Of a stretch of DNA of 64,000 nucleotides, positions 10,205-61,800 are shown in pieces (within the stretch, counting starts at the first letter, position 1; every line of letters starts with the position of its first letter). The stretch covers positions 21,206,001 through 21,270,000 of the forward strand of contig OZ076409.1 of assembly GCA_964187785.1 (NCBI GenBank), in the 5' to 3' direction. Made by a program: the position numbers and the translations under genes. Under the pieces are notes generated by a model. That model was not told the DNA's origin and did no database searches. It worked only from the letters and a program-made list of their open reading frames with translations. The DNA is from Amphiscolops sp. MND2022 (lineage: Eukaryota).

Positions 10205-10404
10205 NNNNNNNNNNNNNNNNNNNNNNNNNNNNNNNNNNNNNNNNNNNNNNNNNNNNNNNNNNNNNNNNNNNNNNNNNNNNNNNNNNNNNNNNNNNNNNNN
10301 NNNNNNNNNNNNNNNNNNNNNNNNNNNNNNNNNNNNNNNNNNNNNNNNNNNNNNNNNNNNNNNNNNNNNNNNNNNNNNNNNNNNNNNNNNNNNNNNNNNN
10401 NNNN
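10205..10404. other. Assembly gap (200 N)
   Basis: Run of N. Confidence 1.
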
Positions 10405-14850: not shown

Positions 14851-14880
14851 GAGTTTTTGGTTCTAAAAATTTTTCAGTTG

Positions 14881-20230: not shown

Positions 20231-23200
20231 ATCATATCATGGCTTGTTCTGCTTCTTAGTTCTTCAATTGACCCGAATTTGATATGCTTTTTCTCAAGTT
20301 TTTGTAAACATTGCATTTGAAGATAAAATGCATGGACGTCTCTTCGTGATTCCACATCTTAATAATCATTTTGGTAGCTTGTTTGCTGAAAAATCTCGGT
20401 ATCAATTGTTCTGTCGATTTGAGTGGAGGGAATTCAGGCAATATAATTCCCAATCGGAATTTCCATATATCTAGTGGCGGTGCATATTTGCATTGAATCA
20501 ATTTGCGGGAATGTGCAATCTGTCACTGAGATCGAAGTAAAATTGTCAAAGAAAATGAGATCGAATCAATGTTTTCAAATACCTAGCGTTTTCAAATATT
20601 AATGTTTTAGGCCCTCGTATGGGCCCCATTTCCTCTAGTGTCCCGCGGCTCCTTGGGGCCGCTTTTGTTCCCATCTAGCTGAGCGAGGTCGAACATGAGC
20701 AAAGACCTAGCGGAGATCGCGAAGCGATCGTAGTGGAAGCTGCTCTTCGCGATGGTGAAGGTGAGCGTGCATAAACGTTATATGACCCTATTTTAGTAGG
20801 GAAAAGAACCTAAAGTCTTTTAAACGCCTTTACACGGTCTGCAGGAGCAAAAACATAGCAAAAACGGAAGAATTCGATCCCAAAACTATTGAATTTTTTC
20901 TCGATCTCGCTTTTCGATCTCACGAACTATCGATCTCAAAATACTGAAATTACCCCACCAATTCAAGTCTATACTGTTCAGAGAATTGTTTTGTGTGTTT
21001 TTAACCCGAGCGATACCTGAAATATGAACTTAACAAGATCAATTTTTAAACTATTGAACGCGTTTTGAGTATAAACTCATCTTCAGCAACTGAAAAAAGT
21101 ATAGAATGAAACAAATGGAAATTTAACATTTTTATATTGCCAGTAAAAAAATGTTATCAAAAGTATATGTGCGCGATGGAATGTGCGGAATGTGCAAGAG
21201 AGTGTTGGCACTGTAGCAAATTTACACGGCTATAAGTTGATCGTGAGAAGGCGCTGACGGTGTTCATCTCTTTGAGTAACTCCCGGGCACTTCTTGTTTA
21301 TATATATATGTATGCAGGGCCTGGAGTGTGAGCATTTTTGGATATCTCGGGATTTGTCAACCACACGAGCTTTCGTGGATGTTTTACCATATGACAAACA
21401 ATTTCGAACGTGTTGGCCAACGGATGATAAGGTTCTGTATGGAACCAGTTTGTAGGAAACCAGTTTGTGGAATCCAGTTTGTAGAAAAGTGATGTCCAGT
21501 TCGTAGAATGTTTCTCTGCAAACTGGATTCTACAAACTGGTTTTCCACAAACTGGTTAGGTCCAGTTTGTTAAATTCTGGACTTGAAAAAACCAACAATA
21601 AGACCAAAAAATAGGAATGTTGCAAAGTATAAAACGTGCCTCGGATATGTCCCTATTTCTTCTAGTGCCTCGTGGCTCCTTGGTGCCTCTCATGTTCCCA
21701 TCTTGCTAAGCGAAGTCGAACAGGAGCAACGACCTAGCGGGAACGGAGATCGCGAAGCAATCATAGTGGGCGCGTGTCTTTGCGACGGTGAGGGTGAGCG
21801 TGCATACACCGGATATGGCCCACAATTCAGTTTTTGGATCTTATTCCTTTAGATTTTAGGCGGTGGAGCTTTCAGTATCTTGTGTGAAGGATGTCCAGTT
21901 TGTAGAATTTAAAGATTCAGTTTCCAGAAAAAAACTCTTATATGCTCTAATAACACAGAACCAATGTTTAGTAACCTCTTGACAGATCCAGTTTTCGAAT
22001 TGTTTTCCGGAGCTCCAAACCGCGGATATGTACCAACAAGCACAACCATGAAGATAAACTGCCCCGGTACTCAAAACCCACCTCCCAAGTTGAGGATCGA
22101 TCTAGACCGCATGGACTGGAAAAGGTGGTCTGAATTCACAGAATCATCTCTGGAAAAAGCTTCTATCAACTTCTTCAATAGCTAGCTCAACAGAGGACCA
22201 ATGGAAAATCATTGACAGAACTATCAATGAAGCCACACTGAAATTCTCAATATGTCAAAACAATTTCCAACTGATAGCAAGCCATACTGGATTGCGCAAT
22301 TTAAGCAGTGCTGGAGAGAGTTTAATTGGTCGTTTGCAAACAAATTGTAAAACAAGGTTGATCCGCTCCACTCTAATGATCATAACATTGCAACAGATCC
22401 AAATAAGATGGAGAATATTCTGTTTAAAAACTTTTTTGCTGGAAGGCACCTCAAAAAAAAGCTCAGATTTTGATGATGTCTTTTATGATCACGTTAATAA
22501 AATTTGCAACGCGATCTTAGAAGCAGACAGAGAGCATGACAGAGGGCAGCAGCATTTTTTGTAAGAAGAAAGTAACAGCATTTTGAGCTCTGAAATAACA
22601 ACAGGAGAGATACTTCTCTTCTTCAACAAATATGAAACGTCAGACAAAAGATTTGATAATCATGGCTTCCACCCAATCATGCTGAGACACCTGAGAGTAA
22701 GAGCCGTAGATCTAATCAAGACTCTCTTTAACTCATGCGTATCCGCAGGTAACTAGGTATGGGGGACTGCCGATGTTATCTTCCTCACAAAGGTCGGGAA
22801 ACCAGACTACGCCAATCCAAGATCATATAGTGAACAAGACGTTTCGGCGACAGACGTTTCGGCGACCATATGGCGGCGGACGTTTCGGCGACAAAGTGTC
22901 GCTGAAACATCTCTTAACAGGGTGGGAGGAAAACTGTCGCCAAAACGTCTCTTCAAAGGATGGGCGGAAGCCTAAATATGAAGTGTACAACATAAATTGT
23001 CAAAAGACTTGGTTTTGTATACATCATACAGAAGATATCATTTAAAAAGTATAAAACGTGCCTCGGATATGTCCCCATTTCTTCTAGTACCTCACGGCCC
23101 CTTGGGGCCGCTTATTTTCCCATCTTGCATAGCGAGGTCGAGCAGGAGCAAAGACCTAGCGGGAATGGAGATGGCGAAGCGATCGTAGTGGGAGGTGGTC

Positions 23201-26200
23201 TTGGCGACGGAGAGGGCGAGCGTGCATACACAGTATATGCCCCACAATATAATTTTTTCGCTTCCAGAACAAACGTTTTTAGCTTTTTAGAGGACGTTTA
23301 GGCGACAAAAACGTTTCGGCGACACTTTTGTCGCAGAAACGTCCGCCGCCATATTGTCGCCGAAACGCCTGTCACCGAAACGTCCAAAATCCATCATAAT
23401 GACCTATATCATTAACCTCGAAGACATGTAAAGTGTTCGAGAAAATTATCGCCTAAAGACAAGAGAATTTATTGAAAACCACTGGAATCCACCAGTTCAG
23501 CCATATCATGGCTTGTTCTTCTTCTTAGTTCTTCAATTGACCCGAATTTTATGTGCCCTTTCTCAAGTTTTTGGTAAATATTGCATTTAAAGATAAAATG
23601 CATAGACGTCTCTTCGTGGCTCCACATCTCAATCTCAATAATCAATTTGGTAGCTTGTTTGCTGAAAGATCTCGGTATCAATTGTTCTGTCGATTTGACT
23701 GGAGGGAATTCAGGCAATATAATTCCCAATCGGCATTTCCATATATCTAGTGGCGGTGCATATTTGGATCGAATCAATTTGCGGGAATTTGCAATCTGTC
23801 ACAGAGATCGAAGCAAATTGGTCAAAGCGAAGGAGATCGAATCGATGTTTTCAAATACCTAGCGTTTTCAAATAATAATGATTTAGGCACTCGGATATGC
23901 CCCATTTCCTCTAGTGCCCCAGGCTCCTTGTGACCGCTTTTGTTCCCATCTAGCTGAGCGAGGTCGAACAGGAGCAAAGACCTAGCGGAGATCGCGAAGC
24001 GATTGTAGTGGAAACTGCTCTTCGCGATGGTGGGGGTGAGCGTGCATAAACGGTATTTGACCCTATTTTAGTAGGGAAAAAAACCTAAAGTCTTTTAAAC
24101 GCTTTTAAACGCTCTGCAGGAGCAAAAACAGCAAAAACGGAACATATCGATCCCAAAACTTTTGATCATTTTTCGATCTCGCTTTTCGATCTCACGAACT
24201 ATCGATCTCAATATACTGAAAAACCCCACTAATTTAAGTCTAAATTGTTCACAGAATTTTTTCGTGTGATTTTAACCCGAGCGATACCTGAAATATGAAA
24301 TTACCAAGATCAATTTTCAAACTATTAAACGCGTTTTGAAATTAAACACATCTTCAGCAACTGAAAAAAATATAGAATGAAACAAACGGAATTTTAACAT
24401 TTCTATATTGCCAATAAAAAAATTGTTATCAAAAGTATATGTGCGCTATGGAATGTGTAAGACTGTGTTAGCACTGTAGCAAAATTACACAGCTATGAGT
24501 TGATCGTGAGAAGGCGCTGACGGTGTTCATCTCTTTGCGTGAACCCCGGGCACTTCTTGTTTATAAATATATATATATATATAGGCCTGGAAGGTGAGCA
24601 ATTTTGGATATCTCGGAATTTGTCAACCACACGAGCTTCCGTGGACGTTTTACCAAGTGACAAACAATTTCGAACGTGTTGGCCAACGGATGATAGTGTT
24701 CTGTATGCAACCAGTTTGTAGGAAACCAGTTTGTGGAATCCAGTTTGCAGAAAAATGAGGTCCAGTTCATAGAATGTTTTTCTACAAATTGGATTCTACA
24801 AACTGGTTTTTCCACAAATTGGTTAGGTCCAGTTTGTTAAATTCTGGAATTGAAAAAACCAACAATACGACCAAAAAGTAGGAATGTTGCAAAGTATAAA
24901 ACGTGCCTCGGATATGTCCCTATTTCTTCTAGTGCCTCGTGGCTCCTTGGTGCCGCTCATGTTCCCATCTTGCTAAGCGAAGTCGAACAGGAGCAACGAC
25001 CTGGCGGGAACGGAGATCGCGAAGCAATCATAGTGGGCGCGTGTCTTTGCGACGGTGAGGGTGAGCGTGTATACACCGGATATGGCCCACAATTCAGTTT
25101 TGGGATCTTATTCCTTTAGATTTTAGGCGGTGGAGCTTTCAGTATCTTGTGTGAAGGATGTCCAGTTTGTAGAAATTAATGACCCAGTTTGTAGAAGAAA
25201 ATTTCTTATATGCTTTAATAATACAGAACCAATGTTTAGTAACCTCTTGACAGATCCAGTTGTCGAACTGTTTTCGGGAGCTCCAAACCGTGGACATGTA
25301 CCAACAAGCACAACCATGAAGATAAACTGCCCCGCTACTCAAAACCCACCTCCCAATTTGAGGATCGATCTAGACCGCATGGACTGGAAAGGGTGGTCTG
25401 AATTCATAGAATCATCTCTGAAAAAAGATTCTATCGACTTCTTCAATAGCTAGCTCAACACAGGACCAATGGAAAATCATTGACAGAACTATCAATGAAG
25501 CCACACTGAAATTCTCAAAATGTCAAAATATCTTCCAACTCATTGCAAGCCATACTGGATTGCGCAATTTAAGCAGTTCTGGAGAGAGTTTAATCGGTCA
25601 TTTGCAAACAAATTGTATAACAAGGTTGATCCGTTCCACTCTAATGATCATAACATTGCAACAGATCCAAATAAGATGGAGGATATTCTGTTTGATAGCT
25701 TTTTGCTGGAAGGCACCTCATAGAAAAAAGCTCAGATTTTGATGATGTCTTTTATGATCACGTTAATAGAATTTGCAACGCGATCTTAGAAGCAGACAGG
25801 GAGCATGACAGAGGGCAGCAGCATTTTTTGTAAGAAGAAAGTAACAACATTTTGAGCTCTGAAATGACAACAGGAGAGATACTTCTCTTCTTCAAAAAAT
25901 ATGAAACCTCAGACAAAAGGTCATGCTGAGACACTTGAGAGTAAGAGTCGTAGATCTAATCAAGACTCTCTTTAACTCATGCCTATCCGCAGGTTACTAG
26001 ATATGGGATACTGCCGATGTTATCTTCCTCAAAAAGGTCGGGAAACCAGACTACGCCAATCCAAGATCATATAGTGAACAAGACGTTTCGGCGATCATAT
26101 GGCGGCGGACGTTTCGCGACAAAGTGTCGCTGAAACATCTCCTAACAGGGTGAGAGGAAAACTGTCGCCGAAACGTCTCTTCAAAGGATGGGCGGAAACA

Positions 26201-27705
26201 TATATATGAAGTGTACAACATAAATTGTCAAAAGACTTGGTTTTGTATACATCATACAGAAGATATCATTTAAAAAGTATAAAACGTGCCTCGGATATGT
26301 CCCCATTTCTTCCAGTACATCACGGCCCCCTGGGGCTGTTTATTTTCCCATCTTGCTGAGCGAGGTGGAGCAGGAGCAAAGACCTAGCGGGAATGGAGAT
26401 CGCGAAGCACAGTATAGGCCCCACATTATAATTTTTTTGCTTACAGAACAAACGTTTTTAGCTTTTTAGAGGACGTTTCGGCGACAAAAACGTTTCGTCG
26501 ACAATTTTGTCTCCAAAACGCCTGTCACCGAAACGTCCAGAATCCATCATAATGACCTATATCATTAACCTCGAAGACATGTAAAGTGTTCGAGAAAATT
26601 ATCGCCTCAAGACAAGAGAATTTCTTGAAAGCCACTGGAATCCACCAGTTTAATCATATCATGGCTTCTTCTTCTAAGTTCTTCAATTGACCCGAATTTT
26701 ATGTGCCCTTTCTCAAATTTTTGTAAACATTGCATTTAAAGATAAAATGCATAGACGTCTCTTCGTGGTTCCACATCTCAAAATTCATTTTGGTAGCTTG
26801 TTTGCATAAAGATCTCGGTATCAATTGTTCTGTCGATTTGATTGGAGGGAATTCAGGCAATATAATTCCCAATCGGCAATTCCATATATCTAGTGGCGGT
26901 TCATATTTGCATTGAATCAATTTGCGGGAATATGCAACCTGTCACTGAGATCGAAGTAAAATTGTCAAAGAAAATGAGATAATATCAATGTTTTCAAATA
27001 CCTAGCGTTTTCAAATAATAATGTTTTAGGCCCTCGTATGGGCCCCATTTCCTCTAGTGTCCCGCGGCTCCTTGGGGCCGCTTTTGTTCCCATCTAGTTG
27101 AGCGAGGTCGAACATGAGCAAAGACCTAGCGGAGATCGCGAAGCGATTGTAGTGGAAACTGCTCTTCGCGATGGTGAGGGTGAGCGTGCATAAACGTTTG
27201 ATGACCCTATTTTAGTAGGGAAAAAAACCTAAAGTCTTTTAAACGCTTTTAAACGCTCTGCAGGAGCAAAAACAGCAAAAACGGAACATATCGATCCCAA
27301 AACTTTTGATCATTTTTCGATCTCGCTTTTCGATCTCACGAACTATCGATCTCAAAATACTGAAAAACCCCACTAATTTAAGTCTAAATTGTTCACAGAA
27401 TTTTTTCGTGTGATTTTAACCCGAGCGATACCTGAAATATGAAATTACCAAGATCAATTTTCAAACTATTAAACGCGTTTTGAAATTAAACACATCTTCA
27501 GCAACTGAAAAAAATATAGAATGAAACAAACGGAATTTTAACATTTCTATATTGCCAATAAAAAAATTGTTATCAAAAGTATATGTGCGCTATGGAATGT
27601 GTAAGACTGTGTTAGCACTGTAGCAAAATTACACAGCTATGAGTTGATCGTGAGAAGGCGCTGACGGTGTTCATCTCTTTGCGTGAACCCCGGGCACTTC
27701 TTGTT

Positions 27706-27709
<4 letters not shown>

Positions 27710-27761
<52 letters not shown>
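27710..27761. repeat. (TA)n microsatellite, variable in length between array units
   Basis: Shorter versions at ~21298, ~24567 and ~30887. Confidence 0.9.
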
Positions 27762-27764
<3 letters not shown>

Positions 27765-30700
27765 CCTGGAAGGTGAGCAATTTTGGATATCTCGGAATTT
27801 GTCAACCACACGAGCTTCCGTGGACGTTTTACCAAGTGACAAACAATTTCGAACGTGTTGGCCAACGGATGATAGTGTTCTGTATGCAACCAGTTTGTAG
27901 GAAACCAGTTTGTGGAATCCAGTTTGCAGAAAAATGAGGTCCAGTTCATAGAATGTTTTTCTACAAACTGGATTCTACAAACTGGTTTTTCCACAAACTG
28001 GTTAGGTCCAGTTTGTTAAATTCTGGAATTGAAAAAACCAACAATAAGACCAAAAAGTAGGAATGTTGCAAAGTAAAAAACGTGCCTCGGATATGTCCCT
28101 ATTTCTTCTAGTGCCTCGTGGCTCCTTGGTGCTGCTCATGTTCCCATCTTGCTAAGCGAAGTCGAACAGGAGCAACGACCTGGCGGGAACGGAGATCGCG
28201 AAGCAATCATAGTGGGCGCGTGTCTTTGCGACGGTGAGGGTGAGCGTGTATACACCGGATATGGCCCACAATTCAGTTTTGGGATCTTATTCCTTTAGAT
28301 TTTAGGCGGTGGAGCTTTCAGTATCTTGTGTGAAGGATGTCCAGTTTGTAGAATTTAAAGATTCAGTTTCCAGAAAAAACTCTTATATGCTCTAATAACA
28401 CAGAACCAATGTTTAGTAACCTCTTGACAGATCCAGTTTTCGAATTGTTTTCCGGAGCTCCAAACCGCGGATATGTACCAACAAGCACAACCATGAAGAT
28501 AAACTGCCCCGGTACTCAAAACCCACCTCCCAAGTTGAGGATCGATCTAGACCGCATGGACTGGAAAAGGTGGTCTGAATTCACAGAATCATCTCTGGAA
28601 AAAGCTTCTATCAACTTCTTCAATAGCTAGCTCAACAGAGGACCAATGGAAAATCATTGACAGAACTATCAATGAAGCCACACTGAAATTCTCAAAATGT
28701 CAAAATATCTTCCAACTCATTGCAAGCCATACTGGATTGCGCAATTTAAGCAGTTCTGGAGAGAGTTTAATCGGTCATTTGCAAACAAATTGTATAACAA
28801 GGTTGATCCGTTCCACTCTAATGATCATAACATTGCAACAGATCCAAATAAGATGGAGGATATTCTGTTTGATAGCTTTTTGCTGGAAGGCACCTCATAG
28901 AAAAAAGCTCAGATTTTGATGATGTCTTTTATGATCACGTTAATAGAATTTGCAACGCGATCTTAGAAGCAGACAGGGAGCATGACAGAGGGCAGCAGCA
29001 TTTTTTGTAAGAAGAAAGTAACAACATTTTGAGCTCTGAAATGACAACAGGAGAGATACTTCTCTTCTTCAAAAAATATGAAACCTCAGACAAAAGGTCA
29101 TGCTGAGACACTTGAGAGTAAGAGTCGTAGATCTAATCAAGACTCTCTTTAACTCATGCCTATCCGCAGGTTACTAGATATGGGATACTGCCGATGTTAT
29201 CTTCCTCAAAAAGGTCGGGAAACCAGACTACGCCAATCCAAGATCATATAGTGAACAAGACGTTTCGGCGATCATATGGCGGCGGACGTTTCGCGACAAA
29301 GTGTCGCTGAAACATCTCCTAACAGGGTGAGAGGAAAACTGTCGCCGAAACGTCTCTTCAAAGGATGGGCGGAAACATTTATATGAAGTGTACAACATAA
29401 ATTGTCAAAAGACTTGGTTTTGTATACATCATACAGAAGATATCATTTAAAAAGTATAAAACGTGCCTCGGATATGTCCCCATTTCTTCCAGTACATCAC
29501 GGCCCCCTGGGGTTGTTTATTTTCCCATCTTGCTGAGCGAGGTCGAGCAGGAGCAAAGACCTAGCGGGAATGGAGATCGCGAAGCACAGTATAGGCCCCA
29601 CATTATAATTTTTTTGCTTACAGAACAAACGTTTTTAGCTTTTTAGAGGACGTTTCGGCGACAAAAACGTTTCGTCGACAATTTTGTCTCCAAAACGCCT
29701 GTCACCGAAACGTCCAGAATCCATCATAATGACCTATATCATTAACCTCGAAGACATGTAAAGTGTTCGAGAAAATTATCGCCTCAAGACAAGAGAATTT
29801 CTTGAAAGCCACTGGAATCCACCAGTTTAATCATATCATGGCTTCTTCTTCTAAGTTCTTCAATTGACCCGAATTTTATGTGCCCTTTCTCAAATTTTTG
29901 TAAACATTGCATTTAAAGATAAAATGCATAGACGTCTCTTCGTGGTTCCACATCTCAAAATTCATTTTGGTAGCTTGTTTGCATAAAGATCTCGGTATCA
30001 ATTGTTCTGTCGATTGGATTGGAAGGAATTCAGGCAATATAATTCCCAATCGGCAATTCCATATATCTAGTGGCGGTTCATATTTGCATTGAATCAATTT
30101 GCGGGAATATGCAACCTGTCACTGAGATCGAAGTAAAATTGTCAAAGAAAATGAGATAATATCAATGTTTTCAAATACCTAGCGTTTTCAAATAATAATT
30201 TTTTAGGCCCTCGTATGGGCCCCATTTCCTCTAGTGTCCCGCGGCTCCTTGGGGCCGCTTTTGTTCCCATCTAGTTGAGCGAGGTCGAACATGAGCAAAG
30301 ACCTAGCGGAGATCGCGAAGCGATCGTAGTGGAAGCTGCTCGTCGCGATGGTGAGGGTGAGCGTGCATAAACGTTTGATGACCCTATTTCAGTAGGGAAA
30401 AGAACCTAAAGTCTTTTAAACGCTTTCAAACGCTCTGCAGGGACAAAAACATAGCAAAAACGGAACAATTCGATCCCAAAACTTTTGATCCTTTTTCGAT
30501 CTCGCTTTTCGATCTCACGAACTATCGATTTCAAAACACTGAAAATACCCCACCAATTCAAGTCAATACTGTTCACAGAATTGTTTTGTGTGTTTTTAAC
30601 CCAAGCAATACCCGAAATATGAAATTAACAAGATCAATTTTCAAACTATTGAACGCGTTTTGAGTATAAACTCATCTTCAGCAATTGAAAAAATATAGAA

Positions 30701-32249
30701 TGAAACAATCGAGTTTTAACATTTTTATTTTGCCAGTAAAAAAATGTTATCAAAAGTATATGTGCGCGATGGAATGTGTAAGACAGTGTTGGCACTGTAG
30801 CAAAATTACACGGCTATAAGTTGATCGTGAGAAGGCGCTGACGGTGTTCATCTCTTTGATTCAGCCCCGGGCACTTTTTGTTTATCTATATATAGGGCCT
30901 GGAGTGTGAGCAATTTTGGATATCTCGGGATTTGTCAACCACACGAGCTTCCGTGGATGTTTTACCAAATGACAAACAATTTCGAACGTGTAGGCCAACG
31001 GATGATAGTATTCTGCATGGAACCAGTTTGTAGGACACCAGTTTGTGGAATCCAGTTTGTAGAAAAGTGAGGTTCAGTTCGTAGAATGTTTTTCTTCAAA
31101 CTGGATTCTACAAATTGGTTTTCTACAAACTGGTTAGGTCCAGTTTGTTAAATCCGGGAATTGAAAAAACAAACTATAAGACCAAAAAGTAGGAATGATG
31201 CAAAGTATAAAACGTGCCTCGGATATGTCCCTATTTCTTCTGGTTCCTCGTGGCTCCTTGGTGCCGCTCATGTTCCCATCTTGCTAACCGAAGTCGAACA
31301 GGAGCAACGACCTAGCGGGAACGGAGATCGCGAAGCGATCATAGTGGGCGCATATCTTTGCGACAATGAGGGTGAGCGTGCATACATCGGATATGGCCCA
31401 CAATTCAGTTTTTGGATCTTATTCCTTTAGATTATAGGCGGTGGAGCTCTCAGGATCTTGTATGAAGGATGTCCAGTTTGTAAACTTTAATGATCCAGTT
31501 TGTAGAAAAAATTCAACAAACGAGCACCTAGGACCAGTTTGTAGAATTTTACAAACTGGTATTCTACAAACTGGAACGAATTCTGATGTTCGCGCATGCC
31601 CAGTAAGCCGTGTGGTCAAATGCCGCACAGCTTGTACGACATAGCAGGCGTTACAGCCTGGAGAGTCACTTTAATAGACCACTCGACTAGCAAGCAATTA
31701 TTGAACAGCTGATTTGAGTGATGGCCGGACACTTCTCATATTTCTAGTTGTAGATACAGTCATATTGTACACGCGCATTTCGCAATTTGATCTGATTCGT
31801 TTCCACGGTACTACAAATAAAACACTGGCGTCTCATGAGTTTTCTTCCATTAACTCCAGGTCTTGATGGGGTATACAAATTGTTCTTGTTGTCAGATTCC
31901 ATGATCATCGTTTTGTTTATCTGACGCAAGAAAGTCTCATAAAATCTCGGAGGCTAGATTGTAGTGACCTCGATACCATCACCGTGTTACCATGATACAT
32001 TTTTCAACAGGTGGCCAAATAAGCACGACGATCAACGAGCTGGCAGTTTTTTGAAGCAACGGATCTTATATTGGAGGAACGTTCGAAGAAATCCCTTACA
32101 TATAGTACTGTTTGTTGGGACTGGCTTTCTTCATGGCAACTCTCTTCTCTCCGTTTTCTTTCTGCGGTCGATTGTAAAAGCGTCTGATACGAGGTAGTTG
32201 TTGGTCGTTTTCTTTATTCTTTCTACATGTCTACTAGCCATAACTCCGA

Positions 32250-41583: not shown

Positions 41584-42323
41584 CTAAAAAATAGTTGTAC
41601 CTCTGTTAAAAAAAATATTGAAGTAGTATTTTTGGTAAGCCTGCTTTACATCAATTTTAGTCTTCTTTTTAGGCATCTTGGCGGGGATCGTAGCCTCTAT
41701 TAAGCTGGTCACCAACACGGTCGTTTTGTCGCATCTTGAAGTAACGTGTTCTTCGTCAGATTCATCCGAGGACTCGGAGTCCTCGGGTTCTTCGAATTTC
41801 ATTTTTTTGAAAACGGATGCTGCCTTTTGTGACGATTCGCATCGAAGCTGGTAGTATTTGATGGGGACCAAATTCACATTTTCCAGCTGTTCATCGAAAA
41901 AAAAGTTTTCACCTATTGGTATCACAACTGGTGATATCAACATTTCTTTACGGAAGGGATCGTTTTTCATTCCAAACCTTCTTCGATGTCCCCTATGTGT
42001 CGGACGCCGTCTTTAGCATGGGCCAGTGTGTAATGAACTTTATCGTTTCTAACACGTTTTTCTTTCATGTAGCCCAGAACATCAAGGCTCGGTGTCAGTT
42101 CAACACTGCGGCTGTAGCTTGGAATTGGCGTTTCGTTCTTTCGGATGGGCCATTTCTCTGGAAAGTCATGGAATTTTGGGGGTGTTCTAACGACTACTGC
42201 TGCATGTTTTGAGTTGTAATCCAACCATTTGACTTTCGCCTGAAAACAAAAACTTTTTAAATTGTAACTCATTGAATAAAACTCATTAGCAGTAGTGATA
42301 TTTCTGAAAGCAACAAATCGCAA
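41584..42323 (-). CDS. Hypothetical protein exon(s): two ORFs overlapping by ATGA, possibly a frameshift
   Basis: ORFs 41967-42323 and 41584-41970, with an acidic tract and a basic KKK motif. Partly duplicated at 47615-48218. Confidence 0.4.
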
Positions 42324-44162
42324 GTCTGAAAATCGAAAATCTCTAAAACAGCAGCGATTTCTGAAAAAATTATGAGGATGAAAGTCCCTTAGATTTTCGT
42401 ATATGTTTATTCGAAGAATATAGGATGAAAATTTAATACCTCATGAGTTCGGTGGAATTCGGTGACGTAGGCTGATCGCCAAAATCCACATTCTTCCTCG
42501 AAACATTGCAAGAGTTTTCCGTTTTTGAAATTTTTAGAGAATGTCTGCATTGTCTGTTTCGCACTCGGTTCAAGACTCGGTACTAGTAGTGGGTTTAAGA
42601 GGACTAAATTCAGTGTCTTTGTAGTGAAATGAGACTAATATTATGTTGCTTCAAGCAAGCTAAGTTAGCAAAAAGACTTCAACTTGAACTGACTTCAACA
42701 AAAATTAGAATAACTTCAACTTAAACTTGTCACAGCCACAAAACCAAATTGGGTTAAATTGTTCCAAAATAATATGCCTGCCCGCGGGCGTTAATTTGAA
42801 CCAATGTGGTCAAAACTTAGATTTTCGGATAATCAGTTGAATTGCACAATGGAAAAACAATCTATTTAATGATGCTATTCTTTACTATCCAATTTATACT
42901 AATGAATGATGCCTCCTATGATGGGGATGACCATCCTTACAAGGCCCACTTCATCCAATATTCAATCTTGGTTAAAACCTAAACCACAAAACCAAATTGG
43001 GTTAAATTGTTCCAGAGTATTTTGCCGGCCCGGAGGCGTTAATTTGGACTTGAATTTCGAATAATGATAATTATTAAGTGATTATACAATGATGCCCCGT
43101 CCTGGCTGACTTCAAGTCACGCTGATAAGTCACGCTTTAAGTTACGCTGATTGACCATCTTACGCTGCATGACTGAAATCCATTCTACCGGGAAGTGTCT
43201 CGTAATTACATCGTAAAATCGAAAAGGGAATAAGATTTTGAATTCATCATTTGAAATCAATTCCTCGTCAAGTTCAGACCTCAATTTTATTCAAACTTCT
43301 CAACTATATTGTTGCAACAACCAGTTTACTAATCTCTTGAATTCGAGAATCAAACTGAAATTTTCCAAAATGCTCGATGCTTCTTTTTCTCAAACAACAT
43401 CTTCCCAAACTTCGGTCAACATTGCTATCGAGCAAATTATTGCTCGTCAATTGAATGATGATGGAATTGTACAAGAAGTTATCCATGAACTCGCGCCTCC
43501 CCCTGTTCTGACAAGTCAGATATCTCCTCCTCACGGTCAGGCTGATATATATGCCTTCGTTCCATCGAACTCATCAATGCCAGCAATACTCGCCGACAAT
43601 CATACAGGTTCAACATTTTTTGGTACTTTAAAACGTTTGTTGGGCGTAATATACTTTTTCCCTCGGCTATGTGTCGTCTGTTGATAGTTCCAGTTACGTA
43701 GTTACACTCAGTGTCAGTAATTTAAATCATTCTAAATAATTGTCGCACTATGTCAGATAAATTTTACGGAACAAAGTGCTCTACATAACTGGGTAGCGCT
43801 CTAAAGTATTGCAAATCCATAATAATACTTGAATTTATACCACAATAATAAGTTGAATAATATCCATAATAAGTTGAATAATACTTTCTGAACAAGTTTT
43901 GGTCAAACAACTGCCGTCGAAAATGATCCTTCCGACTTAGTAATTCGAATGAAATACTTTTCTGATTTTACAAATTAGGATGAACAACGGATGTTTCCAA
44001 CTGAGTAAATTATTGAGCTAAACAATCAGTGTAGGATAAAAATCGTTTCTTTAGATAACTGAATGCAATCAATTTTTTCTGAATTTTCTTGGATTTATAT
44101 GCTTTCTCTTATTCAAAGAAAAACAGATCGATTTCAAAAATCAATTAGGTTTCGGTAATCAA

Positions 44163-47596
<3,434 letters not shown>

Positions 47597-50057
47597 TTTT
47601 GTGTGTCGTTTTGTGTCGTTTTGTCGCATCTTGAAGTAACGTGTTCTTCGTCAGATTCATCCGAGGACTCGGAGTCCTCGGGTTCTTCGAATTTCATTTT
47701 TTTGAAAACGGATGCTGCCTTTTGTGACGATTCGCATCGAAGCTGGTAGTATTTGATGGGGACCAAATTCACATTTTCCAGCTGTTCATCGAAAAAAAAG
47801 TTTTCACCTATTGGTATCACAACTGGTGATATCAACATTTCTTTACGGAAGGGATCGTTTTTCATTCCAAACCTTCTTCGATGTCCCCTATGTGTCGGAC
47901 GCCGTCTTTAGCATGGGCCAGTGTGTAATGAACTTTATCGTTTCTAACACGTTTTTCTTTCATGTAGCCCAGAACATCAAGGCTCAGTGTCAGTTCAACA
48001 CTGCGGCTGTAGCTTGGAATTGGCGTTTCGTTCTTTCGGATGGGCCATTTCTCTGGAAAGTCATGGAATTTTGGGGGTGTTCTAACGACTACTGCTGCAT
48101 GTTTTGAGTTGTAATCCAACCATTTGACTTTCGCCTGGAAACAAAAACTTTTTAAATTGTAACTCATTGAATAAAACTCATTAGCAGTAGTGATATTTCT
48201 GAAAGCAACAAATCGCAAGTCTGAAAATCGAAAATCTCTAAAACAGCAGCGATTTCTGAAAAAATTATGAGGATGAAAGTCCCTTAGATTTTCGTATATG
48301 TTTATTCGAAGAATATAGGATGAAAATTTAATACCTCATGAGTTCGGTGGAATTCGGTGACGTAGGCTGATCGCCAAAATCCACATTCTTCCTCGAAACA
48401 TTGCAAGAGTTTTCCGTTTTTGAAATTTTTAGAGAATGTCTGCATTGTCTGTTTCGCACTCGGTTCAAGACTCGGTACTAGTAGTGGGTTTAAGAGGACT
48501 AAATTCAGTGTCTTTGTAGTGAAATGAGACTAATATTATGTTGCTTTAAGCAAGCTAAGTTAGCAAAAAGACTTCAACTTGAACTGACTTCAACAAAAAT
48601 TAGAATAACTTCAACTTAAACTTGTCACAGCCACAAAACCAAATTGGGTTAAATTGTTCCAAAATAATATGCCTGCCCGCGGGCGTTAATTTGAACCAAT
48701 GTGGTCAAAACTTAGATTTTCGGATAATCAGTTGAATTGCACAATGGAAAAACAATCTATTTAATGATGCTATTCTTTACTATCCAATTTATACTAATGA
48801 ATGATGCCTCCTATGATGGGGATGACCATCCTTACAAGGCCCACTTCATCCAATATTCAATCTTGGTTAAAACCTAAACCACAAAACCAAATTGGGTTAA
48901 ATTGTTCCAGAGTATTTTGCCGGCCCGGAGGCGTTAATTTGGACTTGAATTTCGAATAATGATAATAATTAAGTGATTATACAATGATGCCCCGTCCTGG
49001 CTGACTTCAAGTCACGCTGATAAGTCACGCTTTAAGTTACGCTGATTGACCATCTTACGCTGCATGACTGAAATCCATTCTACCGGGAAGTGTCTCGTAA
49101 TTACATCGTAAAATCGAAAAGGGAATAAGATTTTGAATTCATCATTTGAAATCAATTCCTCGTCAAGTTCAGACCTCAATTTTATTCAAACTTCTCAACT
49201 ATATTGTTGCAACAACCAGTTTACTAATCTCTTGAATTCGAGAATCAAACTGAAATTTTCCAAAATGCTCGATGCTTCTTTTTCTCAAACAACATCTTCC
49301 CAAACTTCGGTCAACATTGCTATCGAGCAAATTATTGCTCGTCAATTGAATGATGATGGAATTGTACAAGAAGTTATCCATGAACTCGCGCCTCCCCCTG
49401 TTCTGACAAGTCAGATATCTCCTCCTCACGGTCAGGCTGATATATATGCCTTCGTTCCATCGAACTCATCAATGCCAGCAATACTCGCCGACAATCATAC
49501 AGGTTCAACATTTTTTGGTACTTTAAAACGTTTGTTGGGCGTAATATACTTTTTCCCTCGGCTATGTGTCGTCTGTTGATAGTTCCAGTTACGTAGTTAC
49601 ACTCAGTGTCAGTAATTTAAATAATTCTAAATAATTGTCGCACTATGTCAGATAAATTTTACGGAACAAAGTGCTCTACATAACTGGGTAGCGCTCTAAA
49701 GTATTGCAAATCCATAATAATACTTGAATTTATACCACAATAATAAGTTGAATAATATCCATAATAAGTTGAATAATACTTTCTGAACAAGTTTTGGTCA
49801 AACATTTGCCGTCGAAAATGATCCTTCCGACTTAGTAATTCGAATGAAATACTTTTCTGATTTTACAAATTAGGATGAACAACGGATGTTTCCAACTGAG
49901 TAAATTATTGAGCTAAACAATCAGTGTAGGATAAAAATCGTTTCTTTAGATAACTGAATGCAATCAATTTTTTCTGAATTTTCTTGGATTTATATGCTTT
50001 CTCTTATTCAAAGAAAAACAGATCGATTTCAAAAATCAATTAGGTTTCGGTAATCAA

Positions 50058-52624
<2,567 letters not shown>

Positions 52625-52819
52625 ATTTCTAGAAATATCGAGTCCATTTTGCAGGAGGCCCGGAGGCCAATTTGCACAGCTGAGGCCATTTTGCACAAGT
52701 GGAGGCCAAATTGCACAGGATCTATTATTTTGTTGCGTTTTGGAGTCTTTGCCATAGAGAGAGCATCGAGAAACCGTTTTGCACATGCCACGAAAATGGA
52801 AATTGGTCTCTCTACAGAT

Positions 52820-53955
52820 AAGCCGTTTCACAGACTCGAGAATCCATTTTGCACTTCTTACGTGATCAGGCTAAGCCAAACTGCATTTCGTAGTTTTCAT
52901 TCGGGAGTCCAATTTGCACAATCATTTTCATTACTTCAACCCAACTAAACTCGAAAAGGGAAATGCAAATTGGCTTCCCTACAGATAATCCCGATGTGCT
53001 CTCTGGCTTCTCGACTCTATCCACAGGGGTGCAATTTGGATTCTCGCCGTTTCACACACTCGAGAATCCATAATGCACTTCTTACGCAATCATCGCGAAG
53101 CCAAATTGCATTTCGTAGTTTGCATTCGAAAGTCCATTTTGCACAATCATTTTCATTACTTCAACCCAACTAAACTCGAAAAGGGAAATGCAAATTGGCT
53201 TCCCTACAGATAATCTTGATGTGCTCCTTGGCTTCTCGACGCTACCCACCCTGGTGCAATTTGGATTCTCGCTGTTTCACACACTCGAGAATCCATTTTG
53301 CACTTCTTACGTAATCATGGCTAAGCCAAATTGCATTTCGTAGTTTGCATTCGGGAATCCAATCTGCACAATCATTTTCTTTACTTCAACCCAACTAAAC
53401 TCGAAAAGGGAAATGCAAATTGGCTTCCCTACAGATAATCTTGATGTGCTCCTTGGCTTCTCGACGCTATCCACCCTGGTGCAATTTGGATTCTCGCCGT
53501 TTCACACACTCGAGAATCCATTTTGCACTTCTTACGTAATCATGGCTAAGCCAAATTGCATTTCGTAGTTTGCATTCGCGAATCCAATCTGCACAATCAT
53601 TTCCTTTACTTCAACCCAACTAAACTCGAAAAGGCAAATGCAAATTGGCTTCCCTACAGATAATCTTGATGTGCTCCTTGGCTTCTCGACGCTATCCACC
53701 CTGGTGCAATTTGGATTCTCGCCGTTTCACACACTCGAGGATCCATTTTGCACTTCTTACGTAATCATGGCTAAGCCAAACTGCATTTCGTAGTTTTCAT
53801 TCGAGAAGCCAATCTGCACAATCATTTTCAATACTTCAATCCAACTAAGCTAAAAAAAAAGGGAAATGCAAATTGGCTTCCCTAAAGATAATCCCGATGT
53901 GCTCCTTGGCTTCTCAACTCTATCCACAGGGGTGCAATTTGGATTCTCGTCGTTT
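52820..53955 (+). repeat. 225-bp subterminal tandem repeat, about 5 copies
   Basis: ATGCAAATTGGCTTCCCT at 52963, 53188, 53413, 53638 and 53866. Confidence 0.93.
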
Positions 53956-53963
53956 CGCAAACT

Positions 53964-54530
53964 CGAAGTTCACGGTATCGCTTTTTCGAACTTAGTCACG
54001 GGATCGCTGTTTCGAACTTGGTCACGGTATCCCTTTTTCGAATTTATTCACGGGATCGCTTTTTCGAACTTAGTCACGGTATCCCGTTTTCAAAGTTATT
54101 CACGGTATCCCTTTTTCGAACTTAGTCACGGGATCGCTGTTTCGAACTTGTTCACGGTATCCCTTTTTCGAACTTAGTCACGGGATCGCTGCTTCGAACT
54201 TAGTCACGGTATCCCGTTTTCGAAGTTATTCACGGTATCCCTTTTTCGAACTTAGTCACGGGATCGCTGTTTCGAACTTGGTCACGGTATCCCTTTTTCG
54301 AATTTATTCACGGGATCGCTTTTTCGAACTTAGTCACGGTATTCCGCTTTCGAAGTTATTCACGGTATCCCTTTTTCGAACTTAGTCACGGGATCGCTGC
54401 TTCGAACTTAGTCACGGTATCCCGTTTTCGAACTTAGTCACGGGATCGCTGTTTCGAACTTGTTCACGGTATTGCTTTTTCGAACTTAGTCACGGTATCC
54501 CGTTTTCGAACTTAGTCACGGGATCACTGC
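53964..54530 (+). repeat. 26-bp minisatellite, about 21 copies, with two largely alternating variants
   Basis: CGAACTTAGTCACGGGATCGCTGTTT / CGAACTTGGTCACGGTATCCCTTTTT. Confidence 0.93.
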
Positions 54531-55622: not shown

Positions 55623-56355
55623 TTACACAACAAATTTCGATGTTTTGTGTTGATAATATTCAAAAGTTAAGTATTGCTCACAGTTTTGTATTTTTTTATA
55701 GATTCTAGTGACGGCACAAGGGGCTAATTGTTTCCCATTAATTTGTAGAATTGTTTTTACGTTCTCAAGGGTCGGAGCTTTGACAACATTTTCGAAATAC
55801 TTTAGGCATCGTTTTTCTTCGTCACTCCAATTTTGCTCCTTTCTGAATAGATTTAAATGCTCAATGTAATTTTGGCGCATGCGATCCTCCTCGTCAAAAT
55901 CTTTGGGGTCAGGTCTCACTCCCGACCAGCGGCGACAATATATTTTACTCCTTTTCTCAGCACTTCCTGGCTGATAAGTGCTGTCACCTCCATCAGAATC
56001 AATGACATCCGATTGAGCTTTTCGTTTTATTGCACCACTCTTGATGGGTGATAATTTTGGTTCACGCACAGGTGTCTGAACTTCCTTCATTGTTGAGTTG
56101 AGGACCTGTGGAGATTCTCCTGAGTTCAGCGTCTCCTGCGCGTCTCCTGATTCATTTTCGGCAATGAGTGGCAAAGGCTGGCTTCGGAGCGGTTCCGATT
56201 CCGTTCTGAGGAAATGGAAGAGCTCGTCGCGTTGACGTTCTGAGGTCTTCGCCAGATAAACTCGCTTTTCCGTGCCATCTGTATGTCCAGTTTGAGCTAT
56301 GTGAGCCCGGGCGAGGGGCGTTTCCATGTTTGGATGCTTATGCCTGAAACAAAAA

Positions 56356-56399
<44 letters not shown>

Positions 56400-58530
56400 T
56401 ATTATTATTATTATTGCTGTTGTTTTAATTTTCATTAGTGAAATCAATACGTAACGATCAATCATTCTATTCCGCGTGACATTGTTGCATTTTAGTTTAC
56501 TAACGATTTTAAATTAGCAAGCCGAATTAGCGCAGTGGATTTAGCATTTGCGAACAACATATCTCGTGTAAATTCTATGTGGGTTCGATTCTCTGTATAA
56601 TTATACATATTTTTATATAAACATTATTTTTAAACTTAAAATAGAATTATAATAATTACTATACATTACTATAATAATAGACTTATACAAACATAATTAC
56701 TTATACATTACTTATATATAATTACTTATACATACTATATAATTACTATAATATATAATATATAAATTATACAAACATATAATTGTAAATATAATAATTA
56801 TAGTATACACACCTGTAGTGGAACGCCCAAAACTTCCGGATGGAATTCGAATTAAAGCGCAGACTTTCGGGGGATATTTTGTAACGGTTTTGTAATGTCT
56901 CTTTGACATCATTGGCCATCGACCTCTCTTCTTTATCACCAGGTGTTCCGAAAACATAAACGGGAGTGAAATTATATTTCGCCTGGAACCGTTTTTTCAG
57001 ATGATCAAAAAGATCATACAAGTCCTCGTGAACCCGAATGGACACCGCAGTCGTTTTTCCTGTCTTGTGTTTGTTGGTTCTGATTTCTTTTTGGTTATTA
57101 TTTTTGAGCGAATCATATTCCTGCCAAGTGAATCGATTCAGCGGTCCAGGGCGACAATTCATACGCACGCTTTGTATAAAATATACCAAAGCTTTTTCCT
57201 CTACAAACTTCAGAATGTCGTGTTGCAGATTCATCTGTAGGTCTTCTTTTATTTTGGCCATAGCGCTTTGGACGTCTATCTGTTCGGGCACCAGCTGCTG
57301 CAATCTTTCTTGTGTTTCTCTCTTCTCGTTGCAAGCTGGTTCCTCGAAGTCTTTATTAACGTTGCTGATAACGTAGTTCCACTTGGGTTGGTCGATTGCT
57401 TCGTCTTTGAACGTAGCGTACCAATTCAGAAATTTGGTGAAACTGTATAGATACTTTTGAGTGGTTTGAAACCCACACGATACTCTTTTTCTCCAATCGT
57501 CGATTACTTTCCCAAAAGCATGCAGTGTACTTTTATGGAATTTACGAGTCCCGTGGAACCACATTGCCATTGTTTTAGCCAAAGTGCTGTTTGGCAAACA
57601 TGTAAATTGTCTACGACCTCTTCGTTTCTCATCGGCGGTTGTTTTTTCGCACCATTCATTTATCAGCTCCATGTGGTCTTCTTCATAACCTCGTTTGTTT
57701 TTCAATAATTGCTTCACCCAGTCAGGAAACTCTTCCACTGCAGCGGGATTTTTGACTCTTTGGATATTCCGACATTCGCAATTTACGTTTTTGCCTCGTG
57801 ATCGCTGTGTTTGGATCGCTCTTTTGTGGGAAGGAATGCTTCCGAATCGTCTTTTGCAATCACTGCAATAATAAACGTTTTTACTTTTCAATGATTGGGC
57901 TCCTCTGAGTTTGTAGTAATTATTGAGAAACAATTTTAAATCTTCTGGTTTCTCGCAATGGACTTTGTTCAAATGTCTGTCAATTCTCGCGTGAATTACA
58001 GCATCGCAAATCAGACATTCATTTACATTCAGTTTTTTAATTCTCTTGTTTTGGCTCGCTTTGGTTTCATTGTCACCTGATTCGCCTTCTGTTTCGATGT
58101 CTGAATTGGGGCAAACCACATTTTGAACATTTTCAGTTGGAACTTCTTCAACAGAGTTGGATTCATCTTCACAGGGAGATTTATTGGGGACCAAATTTTC
58201 ATGAACGTTTTCTGTTGAAACTTCTTCAACAGAGTTGGATTCATCTTCACAGGGAGATTTGTTGGGGACCAAATTTTCATGAACGTTTTCTGTTGCACTT
58301 TTTTCAACAAAACTTGGTTCAACTTCCCTAGGAGATTTGTTGGGAACCAAATTTCCATGAACTTTCTCAGTTGCACATTCTTCAACTTCCATGGGAGATT
58401 TGGTGACAACCGTATTTTCATGAACGTTTTCGGTGTCAACCACGTTTTTGCGTTTTTGATTAAGAGCTGGCTTTTCTGATATATTTTTTTGTGCAGATCT
58501 CCTGGCTCGTCTCACGGATCGGGATTCCAT
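55623..58530 (-). CDS. Two-exon zinc-finger / tyrosine recombinase / Myb-like protein, 812 aa (exons 58530-56813 and 56343-55623)
   Basis: Donor AG|GTGTGT and acceptor TTTGTTTCAG|G are phase-matched (2439 nt in total). YR motifs in order: NCRPG (R), HKTG (K), SNSIRK (R), QTGHT (H), KRVY (Y). C2H2 finger CLIC..HLNKVH, N-terminal 26-aa repeats, C-terminal WSDEE helical domain. Confidence 0.85.
56521..56593 (+). other. Degenerate tRNA-like/SINE head inside the recombinase intron
   Basis: A-box-like TAGCGCAGTGG and B-box-like GGTTCGATTC. No intact cloverleaf. Confidence 0.45.
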
Positions 58531-58544
58531 TTTTGTGCTCACTA

Positions 58545-58940
58545 AACTACCGAATTCTATTCAATGAATGAATTACAGGTATTATTAGATTTACAAGAAT
58601 GCAGGTTTATTAAGTAACAGGTTTGATATTGAGGTTCCAAATTGAACGCCAATGAGGTGTGAACCTCATTGTTAACAGGTAGTTCGATTTTCCCTTCAAT
58701 TAACAGGTATATCTGTTGAACGCAGATCTGCAGGTGTGCAACCGATCGTTTGAAATCAACCTTCATTTATTCTTTAAGCTTCAATCATTTTTCAACATCG
58801 CACGCAATTCTGCAGGTGTGAAATCGATAGTTTGAAATCAACCTTCATTTATTCTTTAAGCTTCAATCATTTTTCAACTTTGTACGCAATTCTGCAGATG
58901 TGAAATTTTATTCAAAGATTTTATTCAAAGTTCACTTTCA
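58545..58940. promoter_or_regulatory. Putative bidirectional promoter
   Basis: 413 bp between divergent ATGs, with seven same-strand CAGGT motifs and an 82-bp direct repeat (58729 and 58811). Confidence 0.5.
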
Positions 58941-58943
58941 GAA

Positions 58944-59621
58944 ATGTATAACGTTACTAACGACACTGCTTCTCTTTATGACGAGTGTGACTACGAAGAG
59001 GAATGTACGTTGTCTGATGGCGAGAAGTTCAGACTTAACACGTCGTTAACGTCTTTCCGTTCGACTTTCTCACACGAAGAAAAAAATGCCCTTTTATTGT
59101 TTAGAAACATCGACAAAGTCCCTACCTTAAATTCCGTGGTTACCACGTTAAATAGAAATGATGTCTGTTTTAGTGACGATCGGATTTTCAAAATATATAA
59201 TAAAGTCAAGACTGCGTTCCATCAAATGAAGAAGACTAGCGCAGAAAGTACTTTCACACAACTTTCAACAACCAGAGGCAGTGAAGACATCCGCGCAACT
59301 TACAAAGCTTCCCTGTTGCGTTTCAGAGTAATCGAGTGGGATACTGAAACCAGGGAAGCCATTCAGTGTTTTGTTGGCGTCGATCTGAAAAAACCCTTGT
59401 CATTCAAAGAAGTGAATGTTGTATTGGAAATTAATGGTTTTGAGTTGCCACACAACACAATTTTGCGAATTTTCAGAAAAGTTAGAAGAGCTATGGTTGG
59501 TATTGGTTGCGTGTCGAGGGATGGTTGTATTACCAACCAGATTACTGAATCAATTTCTCCTGAGCAAGCTGCGATAAGGAGGAAAAAATTTAAAGCTTCA
59601 CTGTCTTCATTGGGACGTTAG
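58944..59621 (+). CDS. 225-aa protein with two Myb/SANT-like repeats paralogous to the recombinase C-terminus
   Basis: FSHEEKNALLLFRNIDKVPTLNSV..IFKIYNKVK and WDTETREAIQCF..VLEING..ILRIFRKVR align by eye with WSDEEKRCLKYFENVVKAPTLENVKTILQING..TRIYKKIQ. Confidence 0.75.
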   Translation: MYNVTNDTASLYDECDYEEECTLSDGEKFRLNTSLTSFRSTFSHEEKNALLLFRNIDKVPTLNSVVTTLNRNDVCFSDDRIFKIYNKVKTAFHQMKKTSAESTFTQLSTTRGSEDIRATYKASLLRFRVIEWDTETREAIQCFVGVDLKKPLSFKEVNVVLEINGFELPHNTILRIFRKVRRAMVGIGCVSRDGCITNQITESISPEQAAIRRKKFKASLSSLGR

Positions 59622-61219
59622 TCACGCACATTGGCCTGCTTCACGTGCGTGGCTTTATTTTATCGGACTGAATTCGAACTGAAATGAAAATTATCGAACT
59701 GAACTCTTTGACAAATTGAATAGCACCTACCCACAATAACGCATTTTCTGCTGCCTAACTTTTGAAAATCTGCCTTTAAAAATCTGAATTTCACTTTTGG
59801 TCTCACACAATTTTGGACAAAACTTTTATTATGCTTATTTCTAGTCAGCAACAAAGATATTCATTTTTCTAGAAACAACACAACATTATTGGAAATATGT
59901 CTTTTTTTCCTCCCGAAATACACCTTTTTTTGTATCATCTCAACCCCCCCCCCAATACGAAAGGTTTTCTGTCTTATAAACCTTATAAACCCAACTCTGT
60001 CTTATATTAATAACATAACCTTCTTACAGATGAAATTTGTAGATGAAATTTGACTGTCTATCAAGCTGAACTGAATTTAACTGGTGGAACTCTCGGCCAA
60101 TAAGAAAGCGCCATTGTGCAGGTTATCATAAAGGCATCGAATTATTTCTGCAATTTATAGAAGGTTAAGAAAAGTACAAGGTAATATAATTAATATTAAT
60201 TATTATTAATATTGTTCAATATTTATAGACAACATGAGCCGACTCCATTTTTAGTTACTATTTGATCCTCAAACTGAGAACCTCTCGAAAAATACATCAT
60301 ACTTGAATTATAAGTCGTTAATAAAAATATAAATTACTTTATTAAATTATTATAGGATTTGAATTTACAATTTACAAATTTACAATTTACAATATACAAT
60401 TCAAAAAATTTTTTGTGAGCTAATGAAACCAAATGTGCTTTCGTATTCACAACAAGGTGTACCTGGACGGGTATTTGGTTGGTTGAACACCCAAAATAAT
60501 GCAGCCCAACTGTTATTGTCAGTGAATTTGAGTCCTTTCTTCAGATCATCACTTCCGTGTGAGAGGTGTGAAATAATTGGCGAAAGCGGCAGGCAGCCAA
60601 TCAAATTTGAACTTGAAGGTTTTTATTAAGTACCTGCAATGGCAAAACTGTCAATTTATAAAATGGCAATAGAATTGCAAAAAATCATTTACATATTAAT
60701 ATATTAATAACATAATATAATTGTAATATAAAATAATATAATTGTATATTGATACAAATTTACAGTTCCAAATGATTATAGCAACAAACCCACCTCCCAA
60801 ATATATTGGATATAAAACTGAATTTCCATCTTTGAGCAACAATTTTACAACTTTCGAGAATACCACCAGGAAGTAAATATGAAATTAAAGCCAGCCAGTG
60901 TTTTCTTTCCTACAACTTCGGTAACAATAATTTGATGTGCAAACTGGCCTCTTTCTCAACTAGCCGGGATGGTGCAATTTGGCCTCGACGTTCTGAACTC
61001 GACGGCGAGTCGCTAAAGATGGGTTAAAAAAGTCGATTTTTTTTTCACGAATGGACGTTTTTTGGGCGTTTTGCATGTGTGGTAAAATATTTTTTTCCAA
61101 CTCTTTCGGGAAGATGCTTAAACCATGGATGCCAAATTGCACGGCCAATTTGCAGGGGGACTTTGTGCAAATCGGACTGTCGATTGAACTCAAGGGGTGC
61201 AATTTGGACTCTCGGAGTA

Positions 61220-61800
<581 letters not shown>

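Follow-up and report, generated by a model that had tools for sequence, protein, structure and literature searches.

A stand-alone transposon gene built from repeated recombinase tail domains in Amphiscolops sp. MND2022

In a microsatellite-inserted transposon of Amphiscolops sp. MND2022, we identified an accessory gene that lies divergently next to a tyrosine-recombinase-like gene and whose intact version encodes a protein of 290 aa with three copies of an approximately 72-aa domain. The same domain closes the recombinase-like protein of the element, while the recombinase core is absent from the accessory product. Our favored reading, to which we assign a probability of roughly 40%, is that with this product the element encodes its own DNA-binding competitor to the recombinase, which acts at the motifs near the element ends and is thus a brake on transposition. 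It builds on the anatomy of the gene, the position of the domain at the end of the recombinase, the motif arrays at both ends of the element and the existence of a second, independent gene of a comparable kind, all of which were observed directly.

Results

Anatomy of the gene pair and of the tail domain

The window, i.e., the whole stretch of 64,000 nucleotides that was analyzed (contig OZ076409.1), contains one copy of the gene pair (Table 1). The first-pass annotation had described an ORF head to head with a recombinase-like gene, and this arrangement was confirmed, with 413 bp between the two ATGs (copy C8a). Its observation that both halves of the ORF resemble the C-terminus of the recombinase also proved to be real: the last 100 aa of the recombinase aligned with the N-terminal half with a score of 88 (z = 13) and with the C-terminal half with a score of 71 (z = 10), values that were reached in 0 of 5,000 shuffles each. 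Furthermore, repeats 1 and 2 were detected with a profile built from 28 recombinase tails and zero accessory-gene sequences (Table 1), for which the best of 2,000 shuffled controls scored 9.4 bits. The two halves of the ORF matched each other weakly (z = 3.1, 56 of 5,000 shuffles). As for the literal motif by which the domain had been described, the underlying similarity was upheld, but in repeat 2 the motif itself fits only loosely (WD..E, PLS).

Table 1. Features of the accessory gene, the recombinase-like gene, the element and the second recombinase-less gene. Positions are those of the window unless a locus or contig is given.
Feature	Position	Strand	Remark
(CTA)n target array, left	52299..52605
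Left imperfect terminal inverted repeat, overlapping the target repeat	52600..52621	+	19/22 match to the right one
17 copies of CAAWTTGCA, mostly inside the 225-bp tandem repeat (52822-53966)	52613..53941		candidate binding sites
Tandem array of 26-bp units, left arm	53969..54529
Recombinase exon 2: catalytic H and Y, linker, tail domain	55623..56343	-	acceptor inferred
Recombinase tail domain, single copy	55665..55886	-
Recombinase exon 1: 78-bp repeat region, zinc-finger-like motifs, catalytic R, K, xxR	56813..58530	-	donor inferred
82-bp repeat, 2.3 copies, in the 413-bp divergent spacer	58720..58906		candidate promoter or operator
Accessory ORF, truncated window copy, ATG start, 225 aa	58944..59621	+	intact copies 290 aa, 3 repeats
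Repeat 1 of the recombinase-tail domain	59040..59234	+	51.5 bits, recombinase-tail-only profile
Repeat 2 of the recombinase-tail domain	59292..59495	+	39.9 bits, recombinase-tail-only profile
Start of repeat 3 (first ten residues), cut by the deletion junction	59577..59612	+	recombinase-tail profile
Right end, with the terminal inverted repeat (61198-61219) and 4 CAAWTTGCA motifs	60973..61219
(TAC)n target array, right	61220..61800
SET-domain ORF / FLYWCH-like ORF, full-length copies	L014:733-1392 / L029:430-924	- / -	missing from the window copy
Second recombinase-less gene, multi-copy	L138, L141, L146, L152, L154, L166; e.g., C4:526349-526771	+

The earlier count of two domain copies, however, reflects damage to the window copy, since the intact gene has three. 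In the window, residue ~222 is joined to sequence 3,948 bp downstream and the ORF terminates in three junction codons; the same 3,948-bp deletion also took out the SET-domain gene and the FLYWCH-like ORF. In all other copies of the gene, divergence from the window sequence begins at 59611, and repeat 3 and the DNA downstream of it are kept at all 8 loci other than the window.

A protein search of the 1.07-Gb genome revealed the accessory gene at 9 loci, with copies 97% to 99% identical to one another. Of the 8 copies examined, 3 have an open ORF, while the other 5 contain frameshifts, stops or deletions, and the variation among copies is neutral (15 non-synonymous and 4 synonymous changes, pN/pS 1.04). 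This is what is expected for young copies, yet it lends no support to a function as a brake. A 63%-identical relative, absent from this assembly, comprises 200 aa and carries repeats 2 and 3, within which its conservation is higher (52/72 and 52/81 positions) than in the linker (11/23). A metagenome scan for the DNA of this relative yielded 187 pattern matches, none of which was confirmed.

The recombinase-like protein comprises 812 aa encoded by two exons, with splice sites inferred from GT/AG and the reading frame. The catalytic motifs of tyrosine recombinases follow a known order, which was used as the expectation for the core alignment. The order found was the expected one, and the catalytic positions are conserved among related cores (R in 35 of 36, K in 36 of 36, xxR in 34 of 34, H in 28 of 30 and Y in 30 of 30), with S or N standing at the position where His is usual. 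Because no match to Pfam, PHROG or PDB profiles was found for the recombinase, the label tyrosine recombinase is based on motif and context. At least 150 related recombinase cores are present in the genome (150 of 652 candidates were scored), and 30 loci of 20 kb were sampled from these. At 26 of the 30 sampled loci, the domain was found downstream of the recombinase core, 2 of the 4 exceptions being truncated genes. All 70 proteins collected with a full domain end within 58 aa after it, and only 6 of them, all products of accessory genes, have more than one copy.

The transposon, its ends and its neighborhood

Two further ORFs are part of the full element of approximately 12.6 kb, one with a SET domain (E 9e-12) and one that is FLYWCH-like (E 0.006, below the cut-off). 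While SET is a separate ORF in full-length copies of this element, it is fused in front of the recombinase in other families. The 9-bp motif CAAWTTGCA is confined to the two ends of the element, with 17 copies in the leftmost 1.35 kb and 4 in the last 250 bp on the right, whereas the 7-kb interior has none; across the window, 34 occurrences were observed versus 2.65 expected, an excess that is inflated by tandem copies. Other families each have their own short motif at both ends, as judged by eye. Between the two genes, the 82-bp spacer repeat showed no significant relation to the 225-bp arm repeat (60 of 1,000 shuffles), and CAAWTTGCA was not found in the spacer, so that transcriptional autorepression through the end motif is unsupported.

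The left end is visible in 8 copies, all of which adjoin (TAC)n there, and 7 of these do so at the right end as well. Right ends with at least 93% identity number 26, compared to 9 loci carrying the accessory gene, which implies many short non-autonomous copies. Three copies of a sister family (79% to 82% core identity) lack both the accessory gene and the cargo and adjoin the same repeat; 2 of the 3 have truncated recombinases and the copies may therefore be deletion derivatives.

The surroundings of the element are rich in further repeats. Another element, which has a SET domain at its end, is present at 41720-46403 and again at 47615-52298, the two copies being 99.8% identical. The reading frame of this neighbor runs into the (CTA)n array and has no tail-domain match, and an apparent intron contains a 115-bp near-perfect palindrome (51094-51262 and 45199-45367). 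Its two copies flank a 650-bp fragment from the left end of the focal element (46948-47596). Elsewhere in the window, we found a large tandem array of ~3.2-kb units with 89% to 97% identity and internal inverted repeats (18715-31513), broken LINE-like frames on the minus strand that appear endonuclease- and reverse-transcriptase-like by eye (12089-15435), and an assembly gap near 10205-10404. At another site, L015/L026 (C8 near 1962400), two neighboring elements are separated by a switch of the target array from (TAC)n to (TAG)n, and several families lie nested end to end within a single array.

A second recombinase-less gene

A second gene combines, in its last exon, the first zinc finger of the recombinase with one tail domain and has no core between them. 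It is located inside (GATA)n-targeting elements (Table 1); exons upstream of the last one were not found. Two copies have 27 kb in common at ~99% identity, starting at the (GATA)n boundary and with different flanks, and this shared unit covers both the second gene and a gene encoding SET, recombinase and tail. In a second subfamily, the gene is divergent from the recombinase at a distance of ~5.7 kb. Between the subfamilies, dS is 1.5 to 2.0 and dN 0.31 to 0.38, giving a dN/dS of about 0.2 for a set of 6 of the 30 fetched loci (L159 and L153, the latter with a broken frame, were left out); the second gene is under purifying selection at this level. Within subfamilies, ratios were mixed, with dN exceeding dS in 1 of 7 pairs.

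The second gene groups with the tails of its own clade (support 95/82), and a single clade uniting it with the triple-domain gene was rejected (AU p = 0.009). The second gene thus arose separately, and a catalysis-less tail gene has been kept beside a complete recombinase at least twice.

A third orphan tail domain was observed at L118 (8557-8787, minus strand), where it follows a low-complexity linker and the 11 kb upstream contain no core. It lies ~850 bp before a divergent recombinase-like ORF of 757 aa, itself equipped with a more divergent helical tail, and is either a remnant or another stand-alone gene.

A possible brake on transposition and a possible helper

The first-pass annotation proposed that the gene encodes a non-catalytic partner with a domain in common with the recombinase. 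This is supported by the lack of a core, by the domain signature kept across deep divergence and by the second, independent gene. In the favored reading, the tail domain would be the module with which the recombinase recognizes its ends, reading family-specific motifs near them, and three linked copies of it would bind motif arrays more tightly than a single one. Stand-alone proteins would then occupy the sites of the recombinase, and binding without a catalytic core may inhibit rather than help, as it does for the Mu repressor and the P-element deletion proteins.

Both of these systems bear comparison with the accessory gene, which has the trait of transposase-derived repressors, namely a domain shared with the enzyme without the catalytic core. 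Rep and MuA of Mu have one domain in common, whereas the accessory gene has three tandem copies. As described in the available text of PMC3820752, the Mu repressor is homologous to the transposase, binds the Mu ends and is divergently transcribed. The likeness thus lies in a separate, divergent gene that shares a domain with the transposase of its own element; however, Mu is a bacterial DDE system with an unrelated domain, and repression has been demonstrated for Mu while it is inferred for the accessory gene. According to the pertinent part of PMC12393704, P-element deletion proteins in which the DNA-binding domain is preserved block the sites of the transposase. Like the KP protein, the accessory product is devoid of catalysis and keeps a domain of the enzyme, and the gene with zinc finger and tail described above has just such a deleted anatomy. 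KP, however, belongs to a non-autonomous element, whereas the accessory gene shares its element with a complete recombinase and has been long retained.

The main rival to a brake, which we regard as unlikely but still worth weighing, is a helper or directionality factor whose linked domains would bridge the two ends through their motif arrays or load the recombinase, and which would aid the excision of long, cargo-laden copies. Tandem domains fit such bridging, and both recombinase-less genes are found in long versions of their families: the focal element reaches 12.6 kb with cargo, compared to a sister without it, and the element with the second gene reaches at least 27 kb, compared to a 9.6-kb relative without a match inside. 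This size trend, however, consists of two cases. Precedents for helpers come from two other groups of transposons. In Starships, as far as covered by the section available from PMC12256816, an optional MYB/SANT gene is carried by the larger elements and is sometimes fused to the recombinase, and a helper role has been proposed for it. For the Myb/MADF partner of Harbinger, which binds subterminal sequences and is arranged head to head with the other gene in some Harbingers, a helper role has been shown (PMC13668399, in the portion available). The accessory gene resembles these as a second, non-catalytic and helical gene of a transposon, but its domain is not detectably Myb/SANT and is also present on the recombinases themselves (26 of 30 sampled loci). 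The presence of the domain on the recombinase argues against a helper, as do the absence of the gene from the sister family and from most sampled families and the excess of right ends (26 at 93% identity or more) over gene loci (9).

Fold and relationships of the tail domain

The competition envisaged for the brake presupposes that the domain contacts DNA. An AlphaFold model of repeat 3 has a pLDDT of 87 and four helices, a fold that repeats 1 and 2 and the recombinase tail of the same element are predicted to share by homology; a single-sequence model of the 290-aa protein (pLDDT 32) was unusable. The repeats align significantly, one of them has a confident fold and further copies of the element contain the gene, and in these respects the initial idea of a repeated, shared domain has stood up. 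Structural matches were weak and mixed, the best being the N-terminal domain of NAB2 (Z 6.0, rmsd 3.0, 75 aligned), followed by matches such as HRDC (Z 5.9) and a homeodomain (Z 4.4). Foldseek with the repeat 3 model returned no match at E ≤ 0.001, and ESM Atlas returned only scores under 0.8. The repeats are basic (pI 9.2 to 10.1), and the last helix of the domain has near-invariant lysines at two positions. Given its basic, helical character, DNA binding by the domain is plausible, although the fold matches are weak (Z ≤ 6).

At the sequence level, Pfam scans of the ORF and the domain gave nothing above the cut-off, and scans of 31 domain members revealed neither a Myb/SANT nor an EF-hand match. 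An hhalign comparison of the domain with 9 Myb domains of the host was weak (4%, E 0.01), Myb and trihelix families were absent among the structural matches listed, and trihelix searches of the host genome gave no match. A profile search of 1.84 billion proteins resulted in 89 matches; those with multiple matching stretches that were checked proved to be EF-hand, TPR or other repeat proteins, with short stretches. The domain is thus without a convincing match to any Pfam family or solved fold.

The likeness to EF-hand proteins raises an improbable alternative, in which the domain is an EF-hand-like or oligomerization module for protein contacts and the triple protein a dominant-negative sponge or a recruiter of chromatin factors, the host factors being recruited together with the SET protein of the element. 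The middle of the domain does resemble EF-hand proteins in sequence, with weak similarity to centrin and calmodulin (best E 0.002), EF-hand proteins occur in the tail of the 89 profile matches, and the best structural matches include helical bundles without DNA binding. However, this likeness spans 32 columns and was obtained with sequences that had been picked for matching. An EF-hand is a helix-loop-helix with acidic calcium ligands in the loop; such an acidic signature was not visible in the domain alignment, and no protein titled EF-hand was among the best 50 structural matches. In addition, conservation in the last helix falls on basic residues, which also argues against a protein-contact module.

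Origin of the three repeats

The repeats are 26% to 31% identical to each other and to the recombinase tail of their own element. Their assignment to the "recombinase's own" domain in the first-pass annotation had to be widened to a lineage-wide domain, as the tail of the same element ranks 8th for repeat 1, 5th for repeat 2 and 22nd for repeat 3 among 67 tails. Repeat 3 is matched best by the L077/L079 family (138, versus 69 for the own tail) and repeat 1 by the C9 family (110 versus 81). A clade of the repeats and their own tail was neither recovered nor rejected (AU p = 0.31); the AU tests covered 36 of 72 domain rows under a simple model, with groups picked after the first tree. The duplication is thus old. 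Since the own tail is not the closest, the repeats may not read the same sites as the recombinase. The recombinase lineage is fast-evolving, however, with a long branch of 1.27, so the repeats may merely retain the ancestral state.

These affinities also invite the view, likewise improbable, that the protein is a weapon against rival families, with each repeat mimicking the tail of another family, blocking its ends and thereby guarding the (TAC)n sites. The nearest relatives of repeats 1 and 3 would suit this, as would the many families crowded and nested in the same arrays. On the other hand, ancestral repeats beside a fast-evolving recombinase would show the same pattern, the tree does not settle where the repeats came from, and the second gene is placed with its own clade.

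Discussion

We propose that the accessory gene encodes a competitor that would act on its own recombinase at the element ends. Among the three roles offered initially (repressor, targeting factor, directionality factor), targeting came out weakest. That the protein reads (CTA)n and brings the recombinase there is very unlikely: a three-unit protein could read a repeated target, and each of the 8 copies whose left end is visible adjoins (TAC)n, but copies of the sister family without the gene adjoin the same repeat, as does the neighboring SET-bearing element without a domain match (although its copies may be incomplete), and (GATA)n families as well as loci without a nearby microsatellite have the domain, too. 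Equally remote is a functionless passenger made of decayed recombinase tails, which the neutral variation and the 5 broken copies out of 8 would suit, but not the open frame of 290 codons, the family signature kept in repeats that are only 26% to 31% identical, the existence of a 63%-identical relative and the purifying selection on the analogous second gene.

Among described transposons, the element resembles CryptonV, a DNA transposon of the tyrosine-recombinase type inserted in microsatellites (Kapitonov and Jurka 2012, via PMC8869645), with which it has the microsatellite insertion and, judging by motif and context, the recombinase-type gene in common. It differs in that the description of CryptonV in the part of PMC8869645 available, the sole basis of this comparison, gives no accessory gene or tail domain. 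Cryptons of the F, S, A and I groups have no terminal inverted repeats and short terminal direct repeats or none (PMC3212892, in the text available), while the focal element has an imperfect inverted repeat of 22 bp with 19 of 22 positions matching. The same portion of PMC3212892 describes animal Cryptons as being without a C-terminal domain, and reports that the C-terminal GCR1_C domain of CryptonF recombinases is reused without catalysis in yeast Gcr1, Msn1 and Hot1. Reuse of a C-terminal recombinase domain without catalysis is the common trait here, but GCR1_C was not detected in the focal domain (0 of 31 domain sequences at E ≤ 0.1).

A search of the literature on accessory genes of CryptonV and other Cryptons, which did not extend to Repbase reports and supplements, revealed nothing on this gene. 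The domain, its triple design and its repeated origin were not found in the literature, while transposase-derived regulators as such have long been known.

How the ends are recognized and how excision versus integration is controlled in eukaryotic tyrosine-recombinase transposons is largely unexplained, and for Cryptons a circle model has been proposed (PMC3212892, in the text available). Our analysis offers a candidate end-binding domain, family-specific candidate 9-bp sites and two natural catalysis-less versions of the enzyme. More broadly, the findings tentatively suggest that a large lineage of animal tyrosine-recombinase transposons targeting microsatellites has an undescribed four-helix end-recognition domain that was spun off at least twice as a stand-alone regulator of the rate or direction of recombination. 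If this holds, eukaryotes would have their own version of the repressor and excisionase logic of phages, with a modular, multivalent DNA reader. If the accessory gene does regulate the recombinase, animal repeat-targeting integrases would carry a built-in switch, which would be relevant to transposon biology as well as to tools for integration at safe sites.
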